This document shows positions 3,644-64,000 of a DNA stretch of 64,000 nt, in pieces. The position numbers and the translations under genes are program-made. The notes beneath the pieces are model-generated. The model saw only the letters and a list, made by a program, of their open reading frames with translations. It did not search any database and was not told the origin of the DNA. The stretch spans positions 105,402,001 through 105,466,000 of the forward strand of contig NW_024704742.1 of assembly GCF_018977255.1 (NCBI RefSeq), written 5' to 3'. This DNA comes from Callorhinchus milii (lineage: Eukaryota). Position 1 is the first letter of the stretch. The number at the start of each line of letters is the position of its first letter.

Positions 3644-5045
3644 CATAAGACGTAAGAGCAGGAGTAGGCCATTTGGCCCCTCGAGCCTGCCCCGCCATTA
3701 ATAAGATCATGGCTGATCTTCTAACCTAATTCCATTTATCCGGGAAACAGTCTCATGGCATCTACCCTGTCAAGACCCTTAAGAATCTTATAGAAACCTA
3801 TAGATCACCTCTAATTCTTCTATGTTCTAGAGAATGTAGGCCTAGTTTATTCAATCTATCCTCATAGGTCAACCCCCTCATCCCAGGAAACAGCCTAGTG
3901 AATCTACGCTGCACCCCCTCAAAGGTGAGTATGTCCTTTCTTAAATAAGGAGACCAACACTGCACACAATATTCTAGGTGCAGTCTCACCTAGACCCTAA
4001 ACAACTGCAGCAAGACTTCCCTACTCTTGTATTTGAACCCTTTTGCAACGAATGTCAACATGACATTAGCCTTCCTAATTGCTTGCTGTACCTGCATACT
4101 AACTTTTTGTGACTGGTGTACAAGGACACCCAAATCCCTCTGAGCACTAACACTACCTAGTATCGCCCCCCTCTATAAAATAATCCGCTTTTCTATTTTT
4201 ACTACCTAGGTGAATAACTTCACACTTCCCCACGTTATACTCCATCTGCCACCTTTTTGCCCCTCACCTAGCCTATCTATTTCCCTTTGCATTCTTCGTG
4301 TGTCATCCTCACAGCTTACTCTCCCACCTATCTTCGTATCGTCCGCAAATTTAGATATAATAAGTTCTATTTCCTCATCTAAATCATTGATATAGACTGT
4401 AAATAATTGAGGCCCAAGCACTGATCCTTGTGGCACTCCACTAGTCACATCCTGCCAATCTGTTTTCTTCCTGTTAGCCACTCTCCAATCCATGCTAATA
4501 TATTACCTTTAATTCCATGAGCTCTACTCTTATGCAACAGTCTTTTACGTGGCACCTTGTTGAATGCCTTCTGGAAATCCAAATACACCACATGTACTGG
4601 TTCCCCCCTATCTAACCTGCTAGTTACATCCTCAAAAAAGTCTATCAGATTTGTTAAACATGATTTCCCTTTCATAAAGCCATGTTGACTCTGCCTAATC
4701 ATCTTATGATTTTCTAAGAACCCCACGACAACGTCCCTAATTAAGGACTCTAGAATTTTCCCTACCACCGATGTCAGACTAACTGGTCTACAGTTCCCCA
4801 ATTTTTGTCTCCCACCCTTCTTAAATATCGGCATTACGTTTGCGATCTTCCAATCAGTGGGAACTGTTCCAGAATCCAGGGAATTTTGGAAGATCAAAAG
4901 CAAAGCCTAGGATGCAGGCCATCAGGTCCAGGGGATTTATCGGTTTTTAATTCTGTCAATTTCTCTAGTACTATTGCTTTACTAATGTTCATTTCTTTAA
5001 CTTCCTCACTAACATTAGCCTCCAGGTTCCCCTCTATTTTTGGTA
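3644..5045 (-). mobile_element. 5'-truncated, frameshifted CR1 LINE (RT domain plus 3' end)
   Basis: ORFs 4445-4903, 4206-4493 and 3798-3989 give RPVSLTSVVGK, YLDFQKAF, GVPQGSVLGP, SKFADDTK, LEYCVQCWSP. CR1 3' terminus cataagacgtaagagcaggagtaggcc at 3644. Confidence 0.93.
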
Positions 5046-7583: not shown

Positions 7584-7700
7584 ATAATAATAATAATCCT
7601 AGCATTTGACATAGCGCCTTATCACGTCTTCGAGATGTCTCAAAGTGCTTCACAGAATATACTGTAAACTGAATTGACTGCATATTTTGTGGGCGAACGT
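7584..7700 (-). mobile_element. SINE 3' fragment nested in a CR1 remnant
   Basis: Reverse tail flanked on both sides by CR1-like sequence (about 7315-7583 and 7701-7830). Confidence 0.75.
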
Positions 7701-8438
7701 TTATCTTATTTGTGTCCCCGGACTACGGACTCCCCAAACCCGAGGAAATGGTCTGTTTTTGCTAAACTTATCGAAGTCCTTTATAATTTTAAACATCTCT
7801 GTTAGCCTGACTAATATTTCACCATTCCACTCCAGAATGTTATTGCAGTAAATATTTTTTGTCCCTGTTTCATGCTTTTTAAACTTGGCATTGAAAGTAA
7901 TATAAATGTGTATAAATCTCACCTTATTGAGATACGCGTCATAATGGGTTTTGGGCATCCAAACTCCCCCTTATTAATACAGTATTGTGATGTTTTGTTG
8001 CTACTGGGTTTTAGTGTTCAAGACCTCAACACACGCTCACTTGAAGCATGCATGCTGCTGATATGCTGTTCAAACACTCCCCTGGAATTGCTCCAAAGTC
8101 AATTTGTTCAGATTAAGTTGCTTTGTATTTAGCCAAGTTTTTATGTAACATTCAGAAACCTTATGTCAAATATGTTCAGCCTCACAAAGAGTAAATGCCA
8201 ACATTGTCAACTGCATAATTAGAATGTGTTGGAATTAAATATACCTTAAATCTTGAGAAAGCAATAACATGTGTAATTACCTTTTATAATACATGTGGGG
8301 CAATATATAACCCAATAACAATTATTTCTCTCCTTGGTGCAGCACTGTATGTGTAAGATATCCTGCAGAGTATAGCTGCAGCTATCCCATCAGTTGGAAG
8401 TTGGGAATGAGTTCTCATTCTTTTTAGAGTTCAGGTAT

Positions 8439-9240
8439 AACAACAACAAAATTACATTTATAGAGCGCCTTTCACATCAGGAGGACGTCCCAAAGTGCTG
8501 AACAGTCAGGTGTTGGGGCCCCAGCATGGGGGAGGGGTGGTGTAGGGGTGAGGGAAGGCAGAGAGGTGGAAGGGCGAGCAAAGGCACGGTCGAAGAGAAG
8601 GGTCTTGAGACCCACCTTGAAGGAGGCAAGGGAGGAAGCGAGGGGAAAGGACCATGGATGGAGTTCCAGAGTGTGGGGGCAGAGAGGCTGAAAGCCCGGC
8701 CACCGATGGTAGGGCGGGTCGGGCGGGAGACATGGAAAGGACCGGAGCCCGCTGAACGGAGGGAGCGGGCAGGCTCATAGGGAGTCAGCAGGTCAGAGAG
8801 ATAGGAGGGGACAAGGCCATGGATGACCTTGAAAGTGAGGACAAGGATCTTGAAATCGATCCTCTAGGGGATGGGGAGCCAGTGGGTTTGGGCAAGGGTG
8901 GGAATGATGGGTTTGCGGAGCCTGGTGCGCGAGAGTACACGAGCTGCAGAATTTTGGATGATCTGCAGCTTGTGAAGGGAAGAGTTGGGAAGGTCGATGA
9001 GGAGAGTTCCTGTAATCGAGCCTTGATGTGACGAATACGTGAGTGAGGGTTTTGGCAGCCTGAGGGGTGCGGCAGTGGCGGAGTCTGGCAATGTTGTGGA
9101 GGTGGTGGTAGGCAGTGCCGATCATGCCGCGGATGTGGGGGAGAAAGGACAGTTCAGGGTCAAACAAGACACCCAGGTTCCTGACTGGCTTAGTGAGGTT
9201 GAGTGTGCAGCTGTGGAGGCTGATACTTCCAGCGCCCGAG
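8439..9240 (-). mobile_element. 5'-truncated L2 LINE
   Basis: (AAC)n tail plus attacatttatagagcgcc. Broken ORF2 C-terminus (FDPELSFLPHI, HLHNIARLR, LQIIQNSAARVL, HWLP). Confidence 0.9.
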
Positions 9241-9614
9241 ACTTTGAGACATCTCGACGACGTGTTAAGGCGCTATACCAAATGCAAGGATTATTATTAC
9301 AAGGTGGGCATGCCTGCTATCATAGGAAAGGAAAGATCAGAGGACAATTGACTTTGCACCGCACACTCTTGTGATAGTGAATCCTGACCATGGAGCAAAC
9401 CGATGCACACAGAGAGGCTATTAATGTGCTGAATAATGAAATTGGAAACCGTGTCAGAACTGTGACCAACCTAGGAGAGACTCAGCATTGCTTGCTGCTG
9501 AGGTGTACTTCCATGGAGAAGAAAATAAATGGTAGGGATGCGAGCAATCTGAATAAAAAAAGCAGGATTTGCTGGAAATGCACAGCAGGTCAGTTGTATC
9601 TGAAAGAGAAGAGA

Positions 9615-12600: not shown

Positions 12601-12751
12601 CTAGCTGTACCCTTTGCAGCTATGCTTGCAACCAAAGGATCCAATATGGAATGTAGACAGACATTTCATCTTTATACTGAGCTGGGAGGACTCCTGTGGG
12701 AGGACTCCTTTAATATATTTTCTCTCCCTGTCTCTCTCCCAGTCTCTCTCT

Positions 12752-12791
<40 letters not shown>

Positions 12792-12823
12792 CTCTCTCTC
12801 GCTCAGTCTCTCTCACTGTCTCA

Positions 12824-12864
<41 letters not shown>

Positions 12865-13440
12865 CATCTCTCTCAACTGTACCAGTCGCAGCTTTGCTTG
12901 CAACTAAAGGATCCAATATGGAATGTAGATTGACACACAGACAGACACACAACAGACATTTTGTCTATCTATACTCAGCTGGGAGGACTCCTGTAGGAGG
13001 ACTCAGTAGGAGGACTCCTTTAATATATTTTCTCTCACATTCTCTCTCAGTCTCTCTTCCAGTCTCGCTTTCTATTTCTCTCTCTCTCTGTTTCTCTCAC
13101 TCAGTCTGTCTCTCAGTCTTTCTCTGTGTCTCCCACAAACCACACAGTCACTACACTTTATAATATATTCTCTCTCACAGTCTCTCTCTCTTGAATGGTG
13201 TGTGCTTTTGTCTATCTCTACGTATTTGCAGAATATAACACATAACTTATATTTTGGAGCTTAATTAAAGCATTTTTTAATGCAGCTCATCAACGATAGG
13301 TGATCACCCCAAAAATATGCCCATGACACTCCCCCAGGCAAAAACTTTCTGACGAGGTATAAATCATGTCTCTAATTCAATTGGTCATTGCGTGATTGTC
13401 AGATACACGGACACACAGACACTGTCTTTATTAGTATAGA
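12601..13440 (-). mobile_element. Non-autonomous Helitron with internal (CT)n tracts and duplicated 3' module
   Basis: Minus strand starts A|TCTATACTAATAAAG (13440) and ends GGTACAGCTAG|T (12601): 5'-TC, 3'-CTAG, A^T target, no TSD. Subterminal hairpin (TTGCA..TGCAA) about 10 nt from the CTAG. Confidence 0.8.
12720..12873. repeat. (CT)n microsatellite inside the Helitron
   Basis: Directly visible; second degenerate tract at about 13030-13130. Confidence 0.95.
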
Positions 13441-14880
13441 TACCACATGAATGTATATATTTATGAAGAAGTATTAACAATATTTATAGGTGAAATATGG
13501 TTAAAAAAAAATTCACATCCTAACATTCTTCACGTGTGAGCCATGAGTGCAATTGTTGCAGTCTTTTTGATCAGAAAGAGCAGCATAATGGAGCCTAATG
13601 TTTACCTCTGAATTAGCTTGCTGCAGGAAGCCAACACCAACTGATATTTTTTGCTGGTATTTTCTATGTATGTACAGATATGTACATATGTTATGAATAT
13701 ACTCTTCATTTAAAGCACATAAAGCTATTATTATCTCACAGTGGCCTTTGAGCAAAAGATAGTCAGAACCCATGCATCACATGTAAAGTATTTTTCTCCT
13801 GACAAATGCACAGGTGACTGGCAGTCGTTTGAGTTATTGCTCAGTATCTATGGTAATTAAGTCTTTGGATGTAGTCCAGAGCCTGATGAAGGTCACTGCT
13901 GAATATTAACTCTAATGTGAAATATTTCTGGAATTGCCCTTGGAAGCAGCACATCAGGGGAGGGGGATCAGCGATGGGGGAGGAGAAGAGGTTAATGACC
14001 ATAAATGGAAAGCTTAACAATATTTTATAATAATAATCCTTGCATTTGATATAGCGCCTTATCATGTATTTAAGACGTTTGCTTAGTTGAAAAGGGTTAC
14101 ATTTAGCCAATCATCATAAGAGGTGTCAGTGCACGAACCAAACACTTTGACACCATCGAGCAATCTTGGGATACCTATAAAACTGACCACATACAGATTG
14201 CAAAGCTTCCTGTCCAATCCAACTATAGGATCTCACCTGAACCTCACAAGAACACTCCCAACGTCTTGTGTGTAGTTTGTCATTCACTTGCCACCTGTCC
14301 TTCTGATCTATCTGAGAGCTCTCCAATTTAGTGCCTAATTGTGCTTATGGTTAGTATTGTGCAGTGTACCCTTGTCCACGAGGTTTTGAGAAGAAGCAGC
14401 CCAGATGTATTTCAATTTGAAGCCTTTCAGTTGACAGAGAGAGAGAGCAAACTTTCACCCCATCAGTCTGCCTTGATCTGAACCTGGTTCCCTGTGGTGA
14501 AAGGTGACTGCAACTAACCTGTTGTGCTCAGAATGATCTATGCAGGTGCAGCTTGTACACTCGATATGACAGCAATGCTATTCTGGTTGAATGTTTTGTG
14601 TTGTTTTGTGTTGGTGAAAGAATTAAATACAAAGAGATGAGCTCTTTATGAACTGTAGTAGAGCACGACCTGCTTGGAGACACGCAGAGAGCTCACCTTG
14701 CCTTCCTCTCTCTTCTCCCTTCAAGGACCTCCAGTTAACAATAATGACTCTGTTTCAGGAAATATCCCCCCCCCCAACCACCACACGCTGTTTCATTTTT
14801 TCATTTTTACCCCATCCCTCCAATTTGGTGACTTCTGCTCAAAAGTTATGAAAGGCAAATATGCAGTGAGTAGCATTTGT

Positions 14881-15206
14881 GGTGTCCCGTAGCATAGTGG
14901 TTAATGCGCTCATCTCGCAAGCCGGGTTCAATTCCCAGGCAGGGAGAAACCTTGGGCAAGTTTCCTTACACCACACTCCTCTGTTCACCTAGCAGTAAGT
15001 AGGAACCCAGTTGTTACTTGATTAGCATATCGTTTTTCCGGGGGCAGTAACCCCTCAAAAATAATAATAATAATTTGGTTACTCAATCTATGAGTGCGCA
15101 GTGTTTCGCCCACAAAATATACAGTCAATTTGCATTACAGAATATTCTGTGAAGCGCTTTGACACGTGATAAGGTGCTAAATCAAATGCAAGTATTATTT
15201 TATTAT
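14881..15206 (+). mobile_element. Same SINE family, full length and diverged (a second tail-only copy follows at about 15400-15503)
   Basis: TAGCATAGTGG A-box, GGTTCAATTCC B-box, GAAACCTTGGGCAAGTTTCC, tail TGTGAAGCGCTTT...CAAATGCAAG. Confidence 0.85.
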
Positions 15207-15594
15207 TTTGGCTTTGAATTGGACAGTTACTATCCATTACATACATGGAAGCTACAGGACTGAAACAGGCCAACGGGCCCAACTCGTTTGTGACGGTCTT
15301 TATACTTCACATAAGCCTCCAACCATCCAGGTGCACCCCCCTCCCCGAGCCTCTCCCATATATCCTTCTATTTCTTTCTCGCAACTTTGTTCATTTACAC
15401 ACAAAAATGCAGTAACCACATTTTACATTGAGTGAATCATGTGAAGCGCTTTGAAACATCCTTCTGAAACTATATTAAATGCAAGAATTATTATTATTAT
15501 TATAATTGCCACTGTATTTCTGGAGTAACAGAGACTTCAATTCAAATGTGAATAAGCCTCGAGAGTTGCTGTATTATTCCTGCTTCCATTCATT

Positions 15595-16442
15595 CAACAA
15601 CAACAACAAAATTACATTTGTATAACGCCTTTCACATTGGGATCACGTGCTAAGGCGCTGGACAGACAAAGTTTCAGACCTGAGCTGGGGGTTGGGATCG
15701 GGGAGGGTGGAGGGCAAGGGGGGAAGCAGGGTGATCGAAAGCACGGTCAAAGAGGAGGGTATTGAGATGGGTCTTGAAGGAAGTAAGGGAGGGGTCGAGG
15801 CGGAGGGACTGCGGGATGGAGTTCCAGAGGGTGGGTGCAGAGTGACAGAAGGCCCACCCGCCAATAGTGGGGCGAGTGAGGCGGGGGGACATGAAGCAGG
15901 ACAGAACCCGCTGAGTGGAGGGAGCGAGCAGGATGGTAGGGCGTTTGGAGGTTGCAGAGATAGGGGGAGCAAGACCATGGAGGGCTTTGAAGATGAGGAC
16001 CAGGATCTTGAACTGTATCCTCGGTGTGATGGGAAGCCAGTGGAGTTGGGCGAGGATGGAGGTGATAGGGTGGCGGAGCCTGGCGCGGAAGAGGACACAG
16101 GCTCCAGATTGCCGGATGATCTGCAGCCTGTGGAGGGAGGAGTTGGGGACGCCGACAAGCAAGTAGTTTGCATAGTCAAGACTCAATGTAATGAAAGCAT
16201 GTATGAGGGTTTTGGCGGCCTGCAGTGTGAGACAGTGGCAGAGCCGGGCGATGTTGTGCAGGTGGGAGAAGGCAGAGTAGGTCATGGCTCAGATATGGGG
16301 TAGTAAGGATAGTTGAGGGTCAAACAAGACCCCAAGATTCCACTCCGGCTTAGTAAAGTGAAGTATGCAACCATGGATGGTGATGCTGTCAGTGGCTGAG
16401 GTGTGGAGGCGTTGATGGGAATCAATCAGGAGAGCCTCATCC
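15595..16442 (-). mobile_element. 5'-truncated L2 LINE
   Basis: (CAA)n tail. ORF 15674-16285 (HLHNIARL...LHWLPITPRIQFKILVLIFKALHGLAP) is an L2 ORF2 C-terminus. Confidence 0.92.
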
Positions 16443-28045: not shown

Positions 28046-29761
28046 TAGGTGAACATTGCTCAGAGGAAGGGCCAAAATCACTTGAGGGTTGTAGAATAGA
28101 GTTGCCAGGGGACTGGGACTTGAGGCCTGCCTTCCTCTCCCTCCCCCGCTCTTTGTTTTTTTTTCCGCACCCTCTCGTTCCCACCTACAACCCTCCCATC
28201 ATAGCACATTTTGGTGCTTCTGAAGAAAATGCCTTCCAAAAAAGAAAAAGGGAGTCAAAAGTAAGACAAGGGTCGCAGTAAAATACAGTTGAAAGACATA
28301 ATTATAACGAGTTGAGACCCAGAGCATTTCAGAATCTGTGATCTTTTCACACTCCAGGCCTAGTTATTCAGATGGGACAGATTCAGCTGCTTCCAAAAAA
28401 CTTGCAGCACAAGTTTTGGAATGAAAAAAACCTAGGATGTCAATTTATCCCGTGTTTAAAACTCCAGTTCTCTAGCCTTAAGAAATGTTAGTTTCATTTA
28501 CTGCACGTTATGTGCTGCATGTGTTTCCAACCAGAGCAGAATTTACTAGCAAAACATGAGTTGTGTCTAGAGCACGTCTCGGAAGACTTCAGCAAGTGAT
28601 AGCATGCACGTGTGCGTGAGATGAGTGGGTTTATATAACCTTTCCAATAAAACCCTTTAGAACTGTTGAATAACGCGCCCAGTTACATTGTTGCTAGATA
28701 TTAAACAACACGCATATTGTACCCTGTGAAATTCAATTCCATTTAATAAGTCATTTGCATTCCATTGAATATCTCCTACTTGTGTTGATGATACAAAGAA
28801 GTCCCTGGGTGATGTTCATTCACATGGGTAGGTCATCATCATTCAGTGTAGGTCTATTTTGCGTGATGAATAAAGACATGTACCTGGCAGCCATCCATCA
28901 GCTGAAGCGAGTGTGCTTGTTAAGCTGAAGAGCAGATAGTGGAGAGCAGCCTTGTCAGTCGCTGTTCCGACATTTGCACAGACAATGCTTAGTCTCTGTG
29001 ACTGCTTCCCACTGTGCATGGATCAACAACAAACTACCGTGACAAGGTCGTGATTACTTTAAAGAAACCCTCAAGATATCTCTGCCGCACTCAAGGCTAC
29101 TTTTGTTTTAAGGAAAATAAAACACGCTAACTTTCAATAACACTGCACTTTTTCAGCTGAATGCTTGTTCTCCAGAAGGTTCACAGTCGGTCAGAATAGA
29201 GAACTACTTCTCACTGGGAGTTGTTAAGAATGACTATCAAACAATTTTGACGTTATTTGTACATTGTGAAAGGGACAGTAGAGGCCATAGCCAGCATTCA
29301 GGACTAAATTATGAAGTGGAGATCAAAAGGAGTTCACCATGTGTGAACTATACATTTGATGTCTTTTTACTCCAAAGTGCATCAATACCTGGATCTCGCT
29401 GAATCAAAAATAGTGTGTTCAGGAGAAATGATAGGAACAAAGGCAGCTTTGTGCATGAATATGGTATACATCAGCTAAAGTACTGGCTGCCCTGGGAGGT
29501 CACTGCTTTAAACAAAGACTGCTAGAGAGGCTGCTGTGTTAATATTTTCCATCAGCTGAAGAATTCCATCCTGGAGAAAGTAGTTTCTGTGTGGACTTTT
29601 TCTATCTCCTATCACTTAAGCTTGCATAACCTAAAGCAACAATTAGCAGTCGTTGTAGTTTTACATTGCTGTCCCTGTTGTGCAAGCACGGTACACAGTG
29701 TTTCTGTGAAAAAACAAAATTCCGCCTTGGTTTTGTTATGTACCTGGTTCTTTTAATATTA

Positions 29762-29935
29762 TTAATAATAATAATCCTTGCATTTGATAGAGCGCCTTAT
29801 CATATCTTAGAGACGTCTCCAAGCGCTTCATGAACATACAGTAAAGTGAATTGATTGTATATTTTGAAACGCAACAGCTAATTGCGTACAGCAGTGTCCC
29901 ACAAACAGTCATGGATTGAGTGAACAGATTATTAT
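29762..29935 (-). mobile_element. SINE 3' half
   Basis: AATAATAATCCTTGCATTTGATAGAGCGCC tail and CAGCAGTGTCCCACAAACAG. Confidence 0.8.
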
Positions 29936-30839
29936 TTTTTACATTTTGTTTTGTTACTAGGAAACAATTTCTCCCTACTGATTCCATCTAAACCCCTCAA
30001 ACATGTCAAAGACCTCCATCAGGTCACCTCACAACCTTCTTTTTCTCTCCAGAGAAAAAAGTCCCAGTTCCTCCACTCATACGGAGGCCAAACCACTCAT
30101 TCCTGGCATCATCCCAATAAAGCTCGTCTACCCCATCTCGATCGCCTTAACACCTTTCCTACAGTGATTGTGACTAACACTTGACACAATATGCTAACTG
30201 CCATCTCAGAGTGGGATTGTCAGGCTGAGGATGTCCTGTGACATGTCTGCCAATCATCCCCCATCTCTTCCCCTCAACCCGCTCACACATTCAGTCCTGG
30301 TTTAAAATAAACAAATTGGTTTAAACAAGATGTTTTATTGTATTCTAGCACTTTTGTTGAGATGTTCTTTTTATGAATAGTAAAGGTATATAAAACATGT
30401 AAGTTGGTATTTCTCTGAACCAGTATTATAAGAAAGCTCAATCTTGATATTTTGACAATGGAACTCAAGAGTAGCTATTTGGCAGGCAATAAAGTGTGCT
30501 GCAGTTATTGCCCGAGTTTCAATAAATCTAACTTTTTATTGTGAGACGTATCCCTCATTCTGAATTTTGCCCATTGGAGAATTTTACTTCAGTTTTTGCC
30601 AAGTTTTCCCCATTTCTCTTCCTCTCCCTCTTCCAAAAACAACAACTTTTGCTGGGAGAGCGCTGGTGACAGGCTTCCAATGCTTCAGCTGCTCTTTTTT
30701 TTGTAAACTCGGACAGTCGGCACTGGAAGGCTATTTGACCATTACAGATGAGCATGATCCTGTTCCCACCTGATGTCCAAACACTCCAATGGGAATCTCC
30801 GTGAAGGAATCAATACAATTTACATTTATATAACTGCGA

Positions 30840-44532: not shown

Positions 44533-44768
44533 AATAATAATAATAATTCTTGCATTTGGCATAGCGCCTCATCACGCCATTGAGACATCTCAAAGTGTTT
44601 CACAAAATATATTGTAAAGTGAATTGACTATATTTTATAGACAAAATGCGGCAGCCAATTGCGCACAGCAGTGTCCTACAAACAATTGAGTGACCAAATT
44701 ATTTATTTAGTTTTGGATGGATTATTACCCCCAGAAAGCGATCAACCAACAACCGGGTTCCTACTTAC
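44533..44768 (-). mobile_element. SINE, headless copy
   Basis: (AAT)n tail and GGCAGCCAATTGCGCACAGCA Deu segment in reverse orientation. Confidence 0.85.
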
Positions 44769-50853: not shown

Positions 50854-52058
50854 ATCCTCATCCACAGCCTCTCCTCTTACCTCAACCTCCACTGCGCTGT
50901 CCTTGATTGGTTCAGATCGTACCTCTCACACCGCCAGCACTTCACCTCCTCAAACGGTTTCTCCTCTAGCCCCCCCACAGTCTCGTGCGGCGTTCCTCAG
51001 GGCTCTGTCCTTAGTCCCCTCCTCTTCAATATGCTCCCTCTTGGTGACATCATCCGCAGTCATGGGGTCAACTTCCACATATATGCAGATGATACCCAAC
51101 TCTATCTCTCTGCCTCCAGCCTTGACTCCAGGACCACTGCTGTCCTGACAGAATGTCTGTCAGACATCAAGTCCTGGATGAGAGTTAACTTTCTTCAATT
51201 GAACGCCAACAAGACTGAGGCTCTCCTGATTGGCTCCTGTCAGTGCCTCCTCACCTCAGGCGCTGACAGCATTACCATCCATGGTTGCACACTCCACCTT
51301 ACTAAGCCAGTCCGGGACCTTGGGGTCTTGTTCGACCCTCAACTATCCTTTCTACCCCACATTCACGCCATGACCCGCTCTGGTTTCCCCCACCTCCGCA
51401 ACATTGCCTGGCTCTGACACTGTCTCACATCGCAGGCCGCCAAAACCTTCATATACGCCTTCATTACATCAAGGCTCGACTATGCAAACTCACTGCCTGT
51501 CGGCCTCCCCAACTCCTCCCTCCACAGGCTGCAGATCATCCAGAATTCTGCAGCCGTGTCCTCTCCCACACTAGGCTCCACGACCCTATCACCCCCATCA
51601 TCGCCCAACTCCACTGGCTTCCCATCACACAGAGGATACAGTTCAAGATCCTGGTCCTCACCTTCAAAGCCCACCATAGTCTTGCTCCCCCTACCTCTCC
51701 GACCTCCTAACCCCCTACCACCCTGTTCGCTCCCTCCACTCAGCGGGCTCCAGCCTGCTTCACGTTCCCCACCTTGCTCGCCTCGCTGTCAGCGGGCGGG
51801 CCTTCCACCACTCTTCACCCACCCTCTAGAACTCCATCCCACAGTCCCTCCGTATCGCCTCCTCCCTCACCACCTTCAAGACCCACCTCAAGACTCTCCT
51901 CTTCAACTGTGCTTTCGATCTCCCTGCTTCCCCCCCTGCCCTCCACCCTCCCCCACCCCGACCCTCAGATTGGGTCCGTAACTCTGTCTGTCCAGCGCCT
52001 TGGGACGTCCTCCCGAAGCGAAAGGCGCTATATAAATGTAATTTTGTTGCGGTTGTTA
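50854..52058 (+). mobile_element. 5'-truncated L2 LINE with RT core
   Basis: ORF 50845-51417: GVPQGSVLSPLLF, HIYADDTQLY, WMRVNFLQLNANKTE. Premature stop and frameshifts downstream. 3' stem-loop and TTG tail at 51994-52058. Confidence 0.93.
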
Positions 52059-52161
52059 TTTAATGGTCTTGTTCAGGTGCATTTCCACTTTGAAAGACTC
52101 TGCGTCTCTGCTCCTATAACCCATTATCATTTAGGGTACATTTCTTTACCTCACCCCAGCC

Positions 52162-52293
52162 AAATAATAATAATTATAATCCTTGCATTTGATATAGCGC
52201 TTTTCACGTCTTCTAGACGTATCAAAGTGCTTCACAGAATATGCTGTAAAATCTATTGACTGTATATTTTGTGGGCGAAACGCAGCAGCCAAT
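52162..52293 (-). mobile_element. SINE 3' fragment
   Basis: Reverse tail plus GTGGGCGAAACGCAGCAGCCAAT. Confidence 0.8.
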
Positions 52294-53718: not shown

Positions 53719-54101
53719 TCTAGTTTTTAAATCCTACCTGAATACCTACCATCGACCGAGCCTAAGATCACCTTCCCCGACACCCTCTTCCCTTGCTCGG
53801 TATCTGATTCTGTCTTTGTAAAGCACTTTGAGATGTTAATTGTGTTATCCTATAAATGCTAGTTGTTGTTTCATTGGTTGTCAATTATTTGATTAAAGAC
53901 AACTGTGATTTCTTATATATTTGATCATATAAGGGTTACCCAACTTGCATAATAGGCCGACTATTGGTGTAACTTGGAATAACATGAACGCTTGATTCTA
54001 ATTACACTGACTGCCACTGAAGGGGTGGATTGTCATACAACTCCTTGTTTGGGTAACCATGATGTCCCTGAACACACTCGGTTACCTCCCCGATGCCTTG
54101 T

Positions 54102-54424
54102 GGAGTCCTGTAGCTCAGTGGTTAGAGCACTCGCTTTGCAAGCGAGAGACTTGAGTTCAATTCCAGGCAGAGGGCGAAACCTTGGGCAAGTTTCCTTACT
54201 CCACACAGAGCCTAATAATAATCCCTCCAAAACCAAAAACAATAATAAATTGGTCATTTTCAATCTACAACTGTTTGTGGGACATTGCTGTGCGCAATTG
54301 GCTGCCGCGTTCGCCCACAAATATACAGTCAATTCACTTTACAGTGTGTTCTGTGAAGCGCTTTGGGATGTCCTCCCGACGTGAAAAGCGCTATATCAAA
54401 TGCAAGGATTATTATTATTATTAT
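54102..54424 (+). mobile_element. tRNA-derived SINE (Ala-like head, partial Deu domain, L2-type tail)
   Basis: A-box TAGCTCAGTGG, B-box GTTCAATTCC, anticodon-like arm CTCGC-TTTGCAA-GCGAG, Deu-type GGGACATTGCTGTGCGCAATTGGCTGCCGCGTT, (ATT)n tail. Confidence 0.9.
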
Positions 54425-55463: not shown

Positions 55464-55826
55464 ATAGTAATATGCTTGCATTTGATATAGCATCTTATCA
55501 CTTCTTTGAGTCGTCTCAAACCGCTTCACAGAATATACTGTAAATTGAGTTGACCGTATATTTTATGGGCGAAATATGGCAGCCAATTGCGGACAGCAGT
55601 GTCCCACAAACAGTTGTGGATTGAGTCATCGAATCTTTTTAAAGGTATTATTACCCCCGGAAAAGCGATCCGCCAATCAACTAACAACAAGGTTCCTACT
55701 TATTGCTAGGTAAACATAGGCACATGGAGTAAGAAAACATGCCTAATGTTTGGCCCTGACCCATCCAGGAATCGAACCCAGGTCCTCTCGCTTGCTCGTG
55801 TTCTAACCAGCACGCTACAGGACTCC
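55464..55826 (-). mobile_element. Same SINE family, full length
   Basis: Reverse complement begins GGAGTCCTGTAGCG, has B-box GGTTCGATTCC, Deu segment and tail. Confidence 0.87.
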
Positions 55827-55842
55827 AGAAGATGGTCAAAAG

Positions 55843-56285: not shown

Positions 56286-56886
56286 CTCAGGCGAGGAGTC
56301 AAATTCCCATTTTATTTAACAATGTGAACTACTGATGTGTTCATAAAGTTAAGAAAAAGCAGAGCTCCATATGTTTAAATAGATTTGGGGATTGGAATAG
56401 AATCATGGAAATTATAGCATTGGAAGAGGTCATTCTGCCCAGTCTGTACAGTGCCAGCTCCTCCTCTGGAGCAAACCTGGATTCCAATTCCCCGCTCCTT
56501 TCCCTTTAATGTTCCTCCTGTTTAAATGTTTATCCAATTCCCTTTTGAATGTCTGATGTCCCTTTGATGTTGACAGCTCTTTTATTTTGTGTAAAGCGTC
56601 TCCGTGTTTCAATGCAATGGTTTGTAACAGGATTCAAAGGTTCTTATTACCGCTGCTTCCTGAATGTGCATTTTTGTGAACCGTGGAAATGCTGCTCCGA
56701 ATTAACGGAAGGAGAATCTGTCAGAGTGGAGTTCCCGCGGGTGGACATAAAGCACATCCGGTTACCCGAAGGATTCAACGTATTATTGAATCCTATGCAG
56801 ATACTAGATTGTAGGTCCCATTGTGTAAGAACATGGATGCTAAATAACTTCCCTTTTGTAAAGCAACATTTGGAGAGTGAGAATGT

Positions 56887-57311
56887 GGAGTCCTGTAGGG
56901 TATCGACTAGAACATCTCACAAGCGAGAGGACCCGGGCTCAATTCCCGGGCAGGGCGAAACCTCAGGCAAGTTTCCTTAATCCACATGCCTCTGTTTACC
57001 GAGCAGTAAATAGTAACCCGGCTGTTAGTCGATTGGCGGATCGCTTTCTGAAGGTAATAATCCCTTAAACAATAATAATAACTTGGTCACTTAATCCACG
57101 AAAGTTGGTGGGATATTGCTGTGCGCGTTTCCTCCACAAAATATACAGTCAATTCACTTTACAGTATATTCTGTGAAGTGCTTTGAGACGTTTAGAAAAC
57201 GTGGAAAGCGCTATATCAAATGCAAGGATTATTATTATTCCGTGAAGCGCTTTGAGATGTTTCAACAACATGAAAAGACGCTATATCAAATGCAAGGATT
57301 ATTATTATTAT
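56887..57311 (+). mobile_element. Same SINE family, full length, with two tandem 3' tails
   Basis: Head GGAGTCCTGTAG...CGAAACC. Tail GTGAAG..CTATATCAAATGCAAGGATTATT occurs at about 57172-57239 and again at 57241-57311. Confidence 0.88.
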
Positions 57312-60085: not shown

Positions 60086-60515
60086 GAGTTATCAAAAACT
60101 TGTTGCATCTGTGTTGCTCAGATTCACTACCAACCACAGAATTTACTATTTGAACTATCAAAGTAGCCTTTTGTATTAAAATCAATTTAAATATTGATAT
60201 TTTCTTCCCATCACAAAACCTTTAGATTCCGAGTGTTTTTTTTTCATCAATCCTGCTTTGAACTTCTTTCCATGTATCTCTTAAAGTTTTTTCTTCTCAG
60301 CTGCTTAGCCAGTTCCCTTTGGAATAATTCTGTTGATTCAGCCTCAAAAGCCACTTGTGCTAGTGAATTCGATACCCTAATAATGCACTGATTGAAGAAA
60401 TTCCTTCTAACCTCTCCTCTGATTCTTCTTACAACCTTCTGCCCTCCTGTCATCAATTCCCCGACTACTCTTTTCTTATTTACCTTCTCGTGCCCTTCAA
60501 AATGTTTAAAATAAA

Positions 60516-61610
60516 AACAACAAACAACAAAATTACATTTGTATAGTGCTTTTCATGTAGGGAGGACATCCCAAGGCGCTGGACAATCAGTGTTTTGGAC
60601 CCGAGCTGCGAATTGGGATTGGCGAGGGTGGAGGGCAGTGGGGGAAGGAGGGTGATCAAAGGCACAGTCGAGAGGAGGGTATTGAAGGAGCAAGGTAGGG
60701 GGGCGAGGCGGAATGGAATTCCAAAGGGTGGGGGTAGAGTGGCTGAAGGCCCGCCCGCCAATGGTGGGATGGGCGAGGCGGGGTGTGTGAAGCAGGCTGG
60801 AGCCTGCTGAGTGGAGGGAGTGGGCAGGTTGGTAGGGGTTAGGAGGTCGCAGAGGTAAGGGGGAGCAAGGCCATGGAGGGCTTTCAAAGTGAGGACCAGG
60901 ATCTTGAACTGTATCCTCTGAAGCCAGTGGAGTCAGGCGAGGATGGGGGTGATAGGGTCGCGGAGCCTGGTGTGGGAGAGGAGACGGGCTGCAGAGTTCT
61001 GGATGATCTGAAGACTGTGGAGGGAGGAGTTGGAGAGACCAACAAGCAGGGAGTTTGCGTAGGCAAGCGTAATCTCACAGTCTCTAGATGTTATGAATGT
61101 GGGTATGAGGCTTTCAGCGGCCTGCGGTGTGAGACAGTGGGGGAGCCGTGCAATGTTGTGGAGATGGGAGAAGGCAGAACAGGTTGTAGTACGGATGTGG
61201 GGTATGAAGAACAGTTGAGGGTTGAACTGGCCGCCGAGATTCCATATTGGCTCAGTGAGATGTAGAGTGTATCCATGGAGGGAGATGCTGTCAGCGCCCG
61301 AGGTATGGAGGCGCTGACGGGAGCCAAGCAGGAGGGCCTCATTGAACTGACATTGAACTGTAAGAAGTTAGCTCTCATCCAAGACTTAATGTCCGACAGA
61401 CAGTCTGTGAGGACAGCAGCTGTCCTGGAATCAAGGGTGGAGGCAGAGAGGTAGAGTTGGGTGTCATCCGCATACATATGGAAGTTGACCCGATGTCTGC
61501 AGATGATGTCACCAAGGGGGAGCATATAGGAGGGGACCAAGGACAAAGCCCTGAGAAACTCCGCATGAGATGTTGCGGAGCTGGAGGAGAAGCCGTTAGT
61601 GGTGACAAAG
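60516..61610 (-). mobile_element. 5'-truncated decayed L2 LINE
   Basis: HMYADDTQLY in ORF 61091-61672; KALHGLAPPYL in ORF 60480-60887; (AAC)n tail at 60516. Confidence 0.9.
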
Positions 61611-62908: not shown

Positions 62909-64000
62909 CCAGTCGGGGAGCGGCGGCGGACAGCGCGGGGAGGAGCCTGGGCCTACTGACCCAGGTACTTAAACTCGACGCCGGAGCGAGTTCAGCTCGG
63001 GGGGGAGGGAGGTGTGGGGGCGGAGCGGGGGAACTGCGACGTCATAGATTAGTTTTCAGGTATGTGCGTGCGCACAAAAAAAAAAAAAAAAAAAACCCTC
63101 TGCGCCCCCCCCCACCCAGGGCTCACATCAGAGCCCACTATGGTCCTGTTGGGTTCGCTGCCCCAATCTACGGGATAATGCCATCCACCTGACCGCTCGC
63201 TCCCGGTCCCCGCGTGCGCACTATGGCTGCCGCTTTGACCCGAGCCCCCTCACCCCCTCCCTCACTCCCCCCTCCTCTCTCCCCCCAAACCCTCCACCCT
63301 CTGCATCTCTCCCGCTCTCTCCTCTCTCTCCGTCCCTCTCGTCTTCTATCCCCACTTGACCCTCCCACAACCTCCCTCTGTTCCAGCCTGGGAATCCTCC
63401 GCCGGGCTCACCGCGGCACTCGGCGTTGGCTGTCCAGCAGCAGCCACACCGACTGCCCCATTCCCCACCACACTCGCCACCCACCCCGGACACAGACCCG
63501 GGGAGTCAACCTCTCCTCCCTCATCCCCATTCCCCCCACCCCTGCTTCACAACCTGGACCCCCCTCCCCTCCCACACACCCTTCTGTCAACCGCTCCCTC
63601 CACATCGGACTGCAAAATGTCCGCTCCCTCTGCAACAAGGCCCTGGTCATCAACGATCTCATCCTTGATGAGAACGTTGATATCATGGCCTTAACAGAAA
63701 CCTGGCTCACCCCAGGCGACACCTTCCCCCTCACGGAGGCCACGCCACCCGGCTACACCTCCCACCACATCCCCCGCCCCAACCGCCGTGGCGGTGGTGT
63801 TGCCCTTATCTCAAGGACACCACTTGCCCTATCCCCCTACTCCACTGGCTCTTTCCCCTCCTTTGAGCACCTCACCCTCTCCCACCCCTCATTCCTCTCC
63901 CTTAAAATCCTCCTCCTCTACCGGCCCCCTAAAACCTCTCCCACCTTCATCTCTGACATTTCAACACTCCTCACATCTCTTTGCCTCTGCTCCGATCGCC
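62909..64000 (+). mobile_element. 5' portion of an L2-clade LINE (GC-rich leader plus start of EN-RT ORF), cut by window end
   Basis: CpG-rich leader, then open frame with LGILRRAHRG and RGVNLSSLIPIP, followed by APE endonuclease motifs (LQNVRSL, ALTETWL, RGGGVA, LLYRPP). Same C-rich composition as the other L2 copies here. Confidence 0.88.
63223..64000 (+). CDS. L2 ORF N-terminus with apurinic-like endonuclease domain (open to window end)
   Basis: ATG at 63223 in strong Kozak context (actATGG). Manual translation finds no stop in 259 codons: MAAALTRAPSPP...HIGLQNVRSLCNKALVINDLILDENVDIMALTETWLTPGD...NRRGGGVALI...KILLLYRPPK. Absent from the ORF track because it has no stop in the window. Confidence 0.8.
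   Translation, partial: MAAALTRAPSPPPSLPPPLSPQTLHPLHLSRSLLSLRPSRLLSPLDPPTTSLCSSLGILRRAHRGTRRWLSSSSHTDCPIPHHTRHPPRTQTRGVNLSSLIPIPPTPASQPGPPSPPTHPSVNRSLHIGLQNVRSLCNKALVINDLILDENVDIMALTETWLTPGDTFPLTEATPPGYTSHHIPRPNRRGGGVALISRTPLALSPYSTGSFPSFEHLTLSHPSFLSLKILLLYRPPKTSPTFISDISTLLTSLCLCSDR

Follow-up and report, generated by a model that had tools for sequence, protein, structure and literature searches.

The minus strand of the window, as we term the whole 64-kb stretch of DNA analysed here, carries a multi-copy, non-autonomous Helitron of the canonical type (HLE1), an 840-bp element that runs from 13440 to 12601, with TCTATACTAATAAAGACAGTGTCTGTGTGTCCGTGT as its first and GGTACAGCTAG as its last letters (TCTATACTAATAAAGAC likewise standing at its start). 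It is very probably a non-coding copy of an old, high-copy HLE1 family that has come down by vertical descent, the copy itself being distinguished by a second 3' end. The original prediction had described such an element, and a sequence check confirmed its coordinates, its letters and its site between A and T; its assignment to the non-autonomous Helitrons is borne out by multiple copies in all four sequencing runs aligned and by ends of CTAG followed by T in AT-rich targets in three of them. The two 3' modules and the 46-bp SINE fragment within the element had been missed.

An A stands directly before the TC start and a T directly after the terminal CTAG, and 31 of 40 flanking bases are A or T. 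The predicted lack of a target-site duplication (TSD) holds for duplications of at least 3 bp; the dinucleotide TA, which is the sole match across the junctions, is present on both sides and is formally compatible with a TA duplication, a point that counts against the preferred reading. Terminal inverted repeats are absent, the best of seven offsets compared giving 8 of 20 matches. The bare TC and CTRR motifs mean nothing alone, and 19,854 ATC...CTRRT pairs at a spacing of 100-3000 bp are found in the window. The element stands above chance because many other copies have a base-exact 3' end and depth becomes single-copy just past 13440 (see below). As regards coding content, the longest stop-free frame on the element strand has 62 aa, Pfam gave no matches in the three tested ORFs that overlap the element, and Rfam and ARAGORN gave none within it. 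A second copy is absent from the window, the matches there being to the element itself, to microsatellite and to SINE sequence.

The flanking TA, the recurrence of the 5' end as an inverted copy of 8-10 nt close to a 3' module, and a GT-type microsatellite near the 5' end are also what might be expected if a Helentron-type (HLE2/HINE) or TA-targeting MITE-type element had been misread as a canonical Helitron. However, the element is devoid of terminal inverted repeats, and HLE2 elements as defined in PMC11417382 insert between T and T and have terminal inverted repeats of more than 11 nt, whereas the present insertion lies between A and T, its family ends in CTAG, and its inverted repeat measures 8 nt within the element and 10 nt with the flank. 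Hence, the Helentron, HLE2 or MITE reading is largely refuted and we regard it as highly improbable. The features recognized within the canonical Helitron are collected in the table below.

Features of the Helitron copy and its internal parts (positions in the window)
Feature	Position	Strand	Basis
Whole non-autonomous Helitron copy	12601..13440	-	A before TC start, T after CTAG end; 840 bp; non-coding; multi-copy in 4/4 runs
5' (left) region, 250 bp	13191..13440	-	TC start, TA-rich first 15 nt, then tract, then family-specific sequence
Degenerate GA-rich spacer	13032..13190	-	GA-rich sequence
46-bp fragment of host tRNA-headed SINE in the GA-rich middle	13126..13171	+	SINE alignment
Internal 3' module	12875..13031	-	GGAGTCCTCC repeats, GT tract, conserved core, 9-pair hairpin, GGTACAG, TTG
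Inverted copy of 5'-terminal octamer	12966..12975	+	8 nt inside the element; 10 nt counting two bases of the flank
(GA)n microsatellite array separating the 3' modules	12721..12874	-	TRF period 2, 77 copies, 75% matches
Terminal 3' module	12601..12720	-	Weak 7-pair hairpin 12614-12631; intact CTAG 12604-12601

Other copies of the element were sought in public sequencing runs with 12875-13440 as the query, by a search that detects near-identical 31-mers only; 24 runs were among the matches listed, 18 of them with some of the 59 sampled words. The share of these words was up to 0.37 in an organism here denoted D, and 0.03-0.09 in organisms A, B, C and E (2 of 59 words in the last) and in two unlabelled runs. 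Contigs of four of the 24 runs, namely X15 (from D), X1 (from A), X4 (from B) and X5 (from C), were aligned at 80% likeness to 12862-14000, a stretch which comprises the 5' end and the inner 3' module, with the outer module lying outside it and pieces below 80% left out. Relative to the flank, depth across 13242-13393 was 545-2615x in X15, 52-239x in X1, 116-516x in X4 and 25-87x in X5, and over the core at 12900-12937 it was 12,423x, 1495x, 2302x and 633x, respectively, summed contig depth being by the method's own caveat not equal to copy number; at 13204-13241 it was low, at 3-23x. Depth far above that of the flank in all four runs identifies the sequence as a dispersed repeat. Instead of being single-copy, one of two outcomes which the original prediction had set against itself, it thus stands at tens to thousands of times the depth of the flank in most of its bins.

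The second such outcome was that other copies might not end at TC/CTAG within AT targets. At 12877 the contigs exit the element at one base, 111 of them in X15, 81 in X1 and 53 in X4, and the consensus of these loose ends finishes in ACTAG on the plus strand with an agreement of just 0.50-0.52, in keeping with many unlike AT-rich flanks. This consensus indicates that the other copies end in GGTACAG-CTAG, followed by T and then by unlike AT-rich flanks. Among the loose-end rows listed for X5 none falls at 12877. On the 5' side, depth declines about 5- to 18-fold across the last 45 bp of the element and is at the level of the flank or zero by the bin 13470-13507, and record 23 of X4 stops exactly at 13440, this being the sole base-exact 5' end among the records listed. 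In each of the four runs there are joints that bring the 3' core (12931) together with 13307-13358 in the 5' region. The short sides of these joints measure 22-30 nt, and it can be said with moderate certainty that in other copies, too, the two ends are parts of a single element.

In all four runs, depth at the core (12900-12937) exceeds that of the best 5' bin by a factor of about 4-7. This excess suggests the presence of many short or 5'-truncated derivatives, or of other subfamilies that share just that end. Read differently, the excess of copies having the 3' core without this 5' region would suit a chance mosaic, in which two copies of a short 3' element (~120-150 bp) lie next to a 5' repeat, microsatellites and a scrap of SINE and never moved as an 840-bp unit; to this may be added that no listed contig covers the whole element, the run alignment having excluded the terminal module. 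We nevertheless consider such a mosaic quite unlikely, given that the above joints tie the 3' core to the 5' region in all four runs, that both outer boundaries are canonical and in the same orientation, and that a AATATATT-led GA-rich unit occurs three times inside the element. For the outer module, the mosaic overlaps with the best explanation under the Helitron reading, since the 840-bp form may represent an insertion next to another copy and may never have moved in one piece.

Two further candidates from the contigs were rejected. A 100-bp mini form suggested by the joint 12941-13423 in X4 may be a misjoin, because the 5' tract resembles the internal GT tract, and record 7 of X1, which extends 24 bp into the flank, was discounted as an orthologous insertion, the conserved-flank depth in X1 deriving from record 8 alone (43.9). 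The tract in question is a short GT/GTCT run at ~13401-13425 within the 5' region; its resemblance to the internal GT tract is a 12-nt simple-sequence match that 4 of 2000 shuffles equal, and 131 of 2000 shuffles are as good as its match to the terminal module.

The internal anatomy includes a pair of homologous 3' modules, which are identical at 107 of 118 ungapped columns (90.7%) and differ by a 13-bp and a 23-bp indel. The inner module has the better hairpin without CTAG, TTG occupying the place that CTAG takes in other copies, and the outer module has the CTAG with a poorer hairpin. The variant letters of the terminal module, TTTCATCTTTAT, also head the loose-end consensus at 12947 (52 contigs in X15 and 67 in X4, by a comparison made by eye), which implies that this module is not merely a locally decayed duplicate. 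The letters of the inverted octamer, whose copy sits ~95 nt from the internal 3' end, are likewise found in this consensus (52 and 67 contigs). The captured SINE fragment in the GA-rich middle aligns with each of the five SINE copies compared, at scores attained by 0 of 1000 shuffles in every case, and contig loose ends at 13132 and 13171 continue as SINE sequence.

The hairpin predicted at the 3' end exists as a 7-pair stem (-3.9 kcal/mol), although it is no better than in shuffled sequence: the last 40 nt fold best as a different, 6-pair stem with some of the CTAG bases inside it, and this fold (z -0.30) is equalled by 73 of 200 shuffles. The internal hairpin has its 9 pairs at 12884-12905 (-4.3 kcal/mol, z -0.25). 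Thus, both hairpins are of the right position and size for a Helitron, yet neither outperforms shuffles (z -0.25 to -0.63). A 22-nt imperfect palindrome ends 11 nt before the family 3' end. Separately, the GGAGTCCTCC repeats of the terminal module at 12670-12720 fold better than 200 of 200 shuffles (z -4.25), and those of the inner module show no fold excess (z -0.05).

A scheme for the origin of this copy can be drawn from Helraiser and from the account of HLE1 elements in PMC11417382. A RepHel transposase acting in trans, which would come from an autonomous partner, would nick at the 5' TC, after which one strand would be displaced by rolling-circle synthesis; copying would pause at the hairpin and the strand would be cut after CTAG, the copy then being pasted between A and T in AT-rich DNA without target duplication. 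The usual member of the family would have one 3' module, end at the position matching 12877 and measure ~570 bp. In the window copy, the first end is without CTAG, and the unit would continue over the (GA)n to the second end and thereby gain an extra 275 bp. This extension could have arisen by read-through past the damaged first end, by insertion beside a 5'-truncated copy of the family, or by an old internal duplication. In bats, PMC4778049 describes new 3' ends in 39 of 395 copies, gained either when the old end was bypassed or when a copy inserted next to a truncated one. The family would have been amplified in, or have descended from, an ancestor common to the host and to the three relatives considered below. 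In this account the enzyme, the order of events and the age of the family are inferred; the ends, the abundance of copies, their common 3' terminus, the presence in relatives, the two modules and the SINE fragment were observed directly.

Among known systems, HelibatN, which is moved by Helibat1/Helraiser (PMC4778049, PMC4224331), shares with the element the 5' TC, the 3' CTAG and the target between A and T. Further likenesses are the AT-rich 3' flank, the palindrome ending 11 nt before the end, the captured pieces of retrotransposons and the new 3' ends; Helraiser itself is reported to have a 19-nt palindrome 11 nt upstream of its 3' end, an AT-rich left end and a preference for AT-rich 3' flanks (PMC4778049). 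HelibatN differs in belonging to another host lineage, and the hairpin of the present element is weak; the two are likened by architecture rather than sequence. Heli1Xen1, described from Xenopus and 13 other vertebrates in PMC12001565, has the same TC and TA-rich left end and the same CTAG right end, and is likewise a vertebrate HLE1 with many small non-autonomous copies. However, its hairpin (CCCGTTA...TAACGGG) is unlike that of the element, and it is young (0.58-10.74 My) and patchily distributed, whereas the element family is ~14% diverged and common to relatives. The main text of PMC12001565 names no shark or chimaera.

The insect-like affinity suggested by the original prediction, that is, a start and a GTCT/GTGT tract of the lepidopteran Lep1 type, found no support in the published descriptions. 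The vertebrate Heli1Xen1 likewise opens with TC and has a TA-rich stretch, and the (CTGT)n tract, together with subterminal inverted repeats, belongs to Hel-2 and not to Lep1 according to PMC4344730. As set out in PMC4038834, Lep1 has a 134-bp core with CTRY and CTRR ends, its elements measure ~190-450 bp, and an element counts as a member if it matches the 134-bp consensus over more than 100 bp at an identity of 70% or higher. Compared by description, Lep1 and Hel-2 resemble the element in being non-autonomous and in having the TC start, the CTRR end and the target between A and T (PMC4038834, PMC4344730). Lep1 differs in its CTRY core end followed by acquired sequence (PMC4038834); the element is ~570 or 840 bp long with CTAG at both equivalent family sites, beyond its first end lies a second, homologous 3' module, and it is at that first end that CTAG terminates other copies. 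By description, the architecture of the element is loosely akin to that of Hel-2.

Organisms A, B and C each yielded one contig on the flank, from ~13552-13569 to 13959-13999, with identities of 88.5, 88.2 and 89.2%, respectively, and this orthologous flank marks them as relatives of the host; we would guess that they are other chimaeras. A contig of X15 at 13343-14000 shows 4 differences over 658 bases, from which it follows that D is the host species or very close to it and has the 5' junction of the insertion; D may not be independent of the source of the window. Over the seven longest pieces listed per run, mean identity to the element is 85.6% in D, 86.5% in A, 86.5% in B and 86.6% in C, and the cross-species element identity (mean 86.5%) is not above that of the orthologous flank (88-89%). 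Identity bands, which take in microsatellite and SINE matches as well, are alike in D (X15), A (X1) and B (X4) (chi-square p 0.49), and those of C (X5) shift lower (p 2e-20 across all four). At 13225 most of the depth in all four runs has a common letter that is absent from the window copy, and the same is seen at 13239 in three of the four. Depth is zero at 13470-13545 in the three relatives, and no empty site was seen among the contigs. The above identities are in accord with a single old family that was handed down from a common ancestor, with no excess similarity across species.

As to the flank itself, the non-repetitive stretch 13552-13999 is conserved at 88-89% in three related organisms and possibly represents a conserved non-coding element or an exon. 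The 110 bp adjoining the element (13441-13551) have no alignment in the relatives.

The original prediction had further proposed horizontal acquisition. Helitrons are known to have passed between animals, with lamprey, lizard, bat and insects among the cases on record (PMC2997563, PMC12001565), lepidopteran Hel-2 combines short (CTGT)n tracts with subterminal inverted repeats much as the element combines a GT tract with an inverted 5' octamer, and there are five organism labels in all among the run-search holders listed. Nevertheless, all three other organisms aligned are relatives with an orthologous flank, no distant holder being seen among them, and identity of the element is not above that of this flank. 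Under the criteria of PMC2997563, transfer calls for stretches longer than 400 bp that are over 80% identical between distant taxa, and the near-identical-word search of runs found only relatives and no distant-taxon match of this kind. Scans for short seeds gave 10 loci in viral contigs with the 5' 17-mer, and 18 loci in metagenomes, 4 in prokaryote genomes and 0 in viral contigs with the core 18-mer; all 32 loci were rejected as homologues, their likeness past the seed being at chance level (at most 12 of 30 bases). As the viral, metagenome and prokaryote collections contain little animal DNA, these scans are a weak test of distant holders. An ancient transfer of the Helitron from an invertebrate, before the host and its relatives split, is in our estimate unlikely, and both an insect origin and horizontal transfer are at present unsupported. 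The continuous vertical distribution that the prediction had named as contrary to transfer is in part borne out, for the three relatives and as far as a search insensitive to diverged DNA extends.

A bolder form of the transfer scenario, which we regard as still more doubtful, would place the arrival of an uncatalogued family on the chimaera stem lineage, with a marine invertebrate or a parasite as its donor, and would have sharks and rays lack it; after very long vertical descent it would now amount to ~0.14% of the genome. This is about the share that annotated DNA transposons of every kind have in the elephant shark, whose genome is regarded as nearly devoid of them. For orientation, the split between Callorhinchus and Chimaera is placed ~187 My ago (PMC12952989), and vertical persistence of Helitrons in bats is put at ~30 My (PMC4224331).

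No described Helitron family of a shark or chimaera was found in the literature searched. Helitrons of the whale shark are reported at the superfamily level in PMC8455134; in PMC6817897 those of the elephant shark make up 0.0068% of the genome (~67 kb) and all DNA transposons together 0.14%, and the mobilome of this species is characterized in PMC4350176 as almost exclusively retroelements. PMC10468316 names Helitrons in a reference only, sharks are unmentioned in the main texts of PMC2997563 and PMC11417382, and PMC3789558 contributed family tables only. The word "Helitron" is absent from the one supplementary file of PMC3964593 that was searched and from the one supplementary text file of PMC12952989, the repeat figure in the latter being a picture. 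The family may already stand in Repbase, Dfam or FishTEDB, perhaps as an unclassified entry. If a crude depth ratio is taken at face value, the family would have 500-2600 copies, which at 500 bp each come to 0.25-1.3 Mb; provided that the host is the elephant shark, this would be 4 to 20 times the published Helitron content, which the family may thus exceed several-fold. Non-autonomous Helitrons, duplicated ends and captured scraps of retroelements are all already known, and the significance of the finding is modest: it adds a family whose ends are defined, in a lineage from which we found no Helitron family described. As an old family common to related species, it could furnish markers based on its insertions and allow one to test how long Helitrons persist by vertical descent.

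L2-like and CR1-like pieces, along with the tRNA-headed SINE, abound in the window, and this make-up is one of the grounds on which a cartilaginous-fish host is likely. The L2 and CR1 labels are ones we presume from protein and tail patterns, Pfam giving RVT_1 only. Four 3' fragments of one L2-like LINE (8437-9300, 15586-16440, 50953-52061 and 60515-61597) are 69-84% alike and have broken reverse-transcriptase frames. A minus-strand frame at 63408-63752, in a GC-rich stretch at the end of the window, has what we take to be a resemblance to the endonuclease start of L2 ORF2; Pfam gave no match in the frame tested there. The CR1-like fragment at 4445-4906 on the minus strand is open for 153 aa and matches RVT_1, and a protein search confirmed it as a reverse transcriptase but did not single out the host group, the best named matches being from turtles at ~59%. 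The abundant SINE, seen at 54097-54424, has a tRNA-Ala-like head and an (ATT)n tail common to the L2-like fragments. The ARAGORN and Rfam match at 54105-54175 corresponds to its head and is probably not a real tRNA gene. About ten partial copies are present, for example at 7584-7697, 14877-15213, 29757-29940, 44533-44768, 52158-52293, 55464-55831 and 56884-57311, and at 57167-57309 the 69-bp 3' tail of the SINE occurs twice in tandem.
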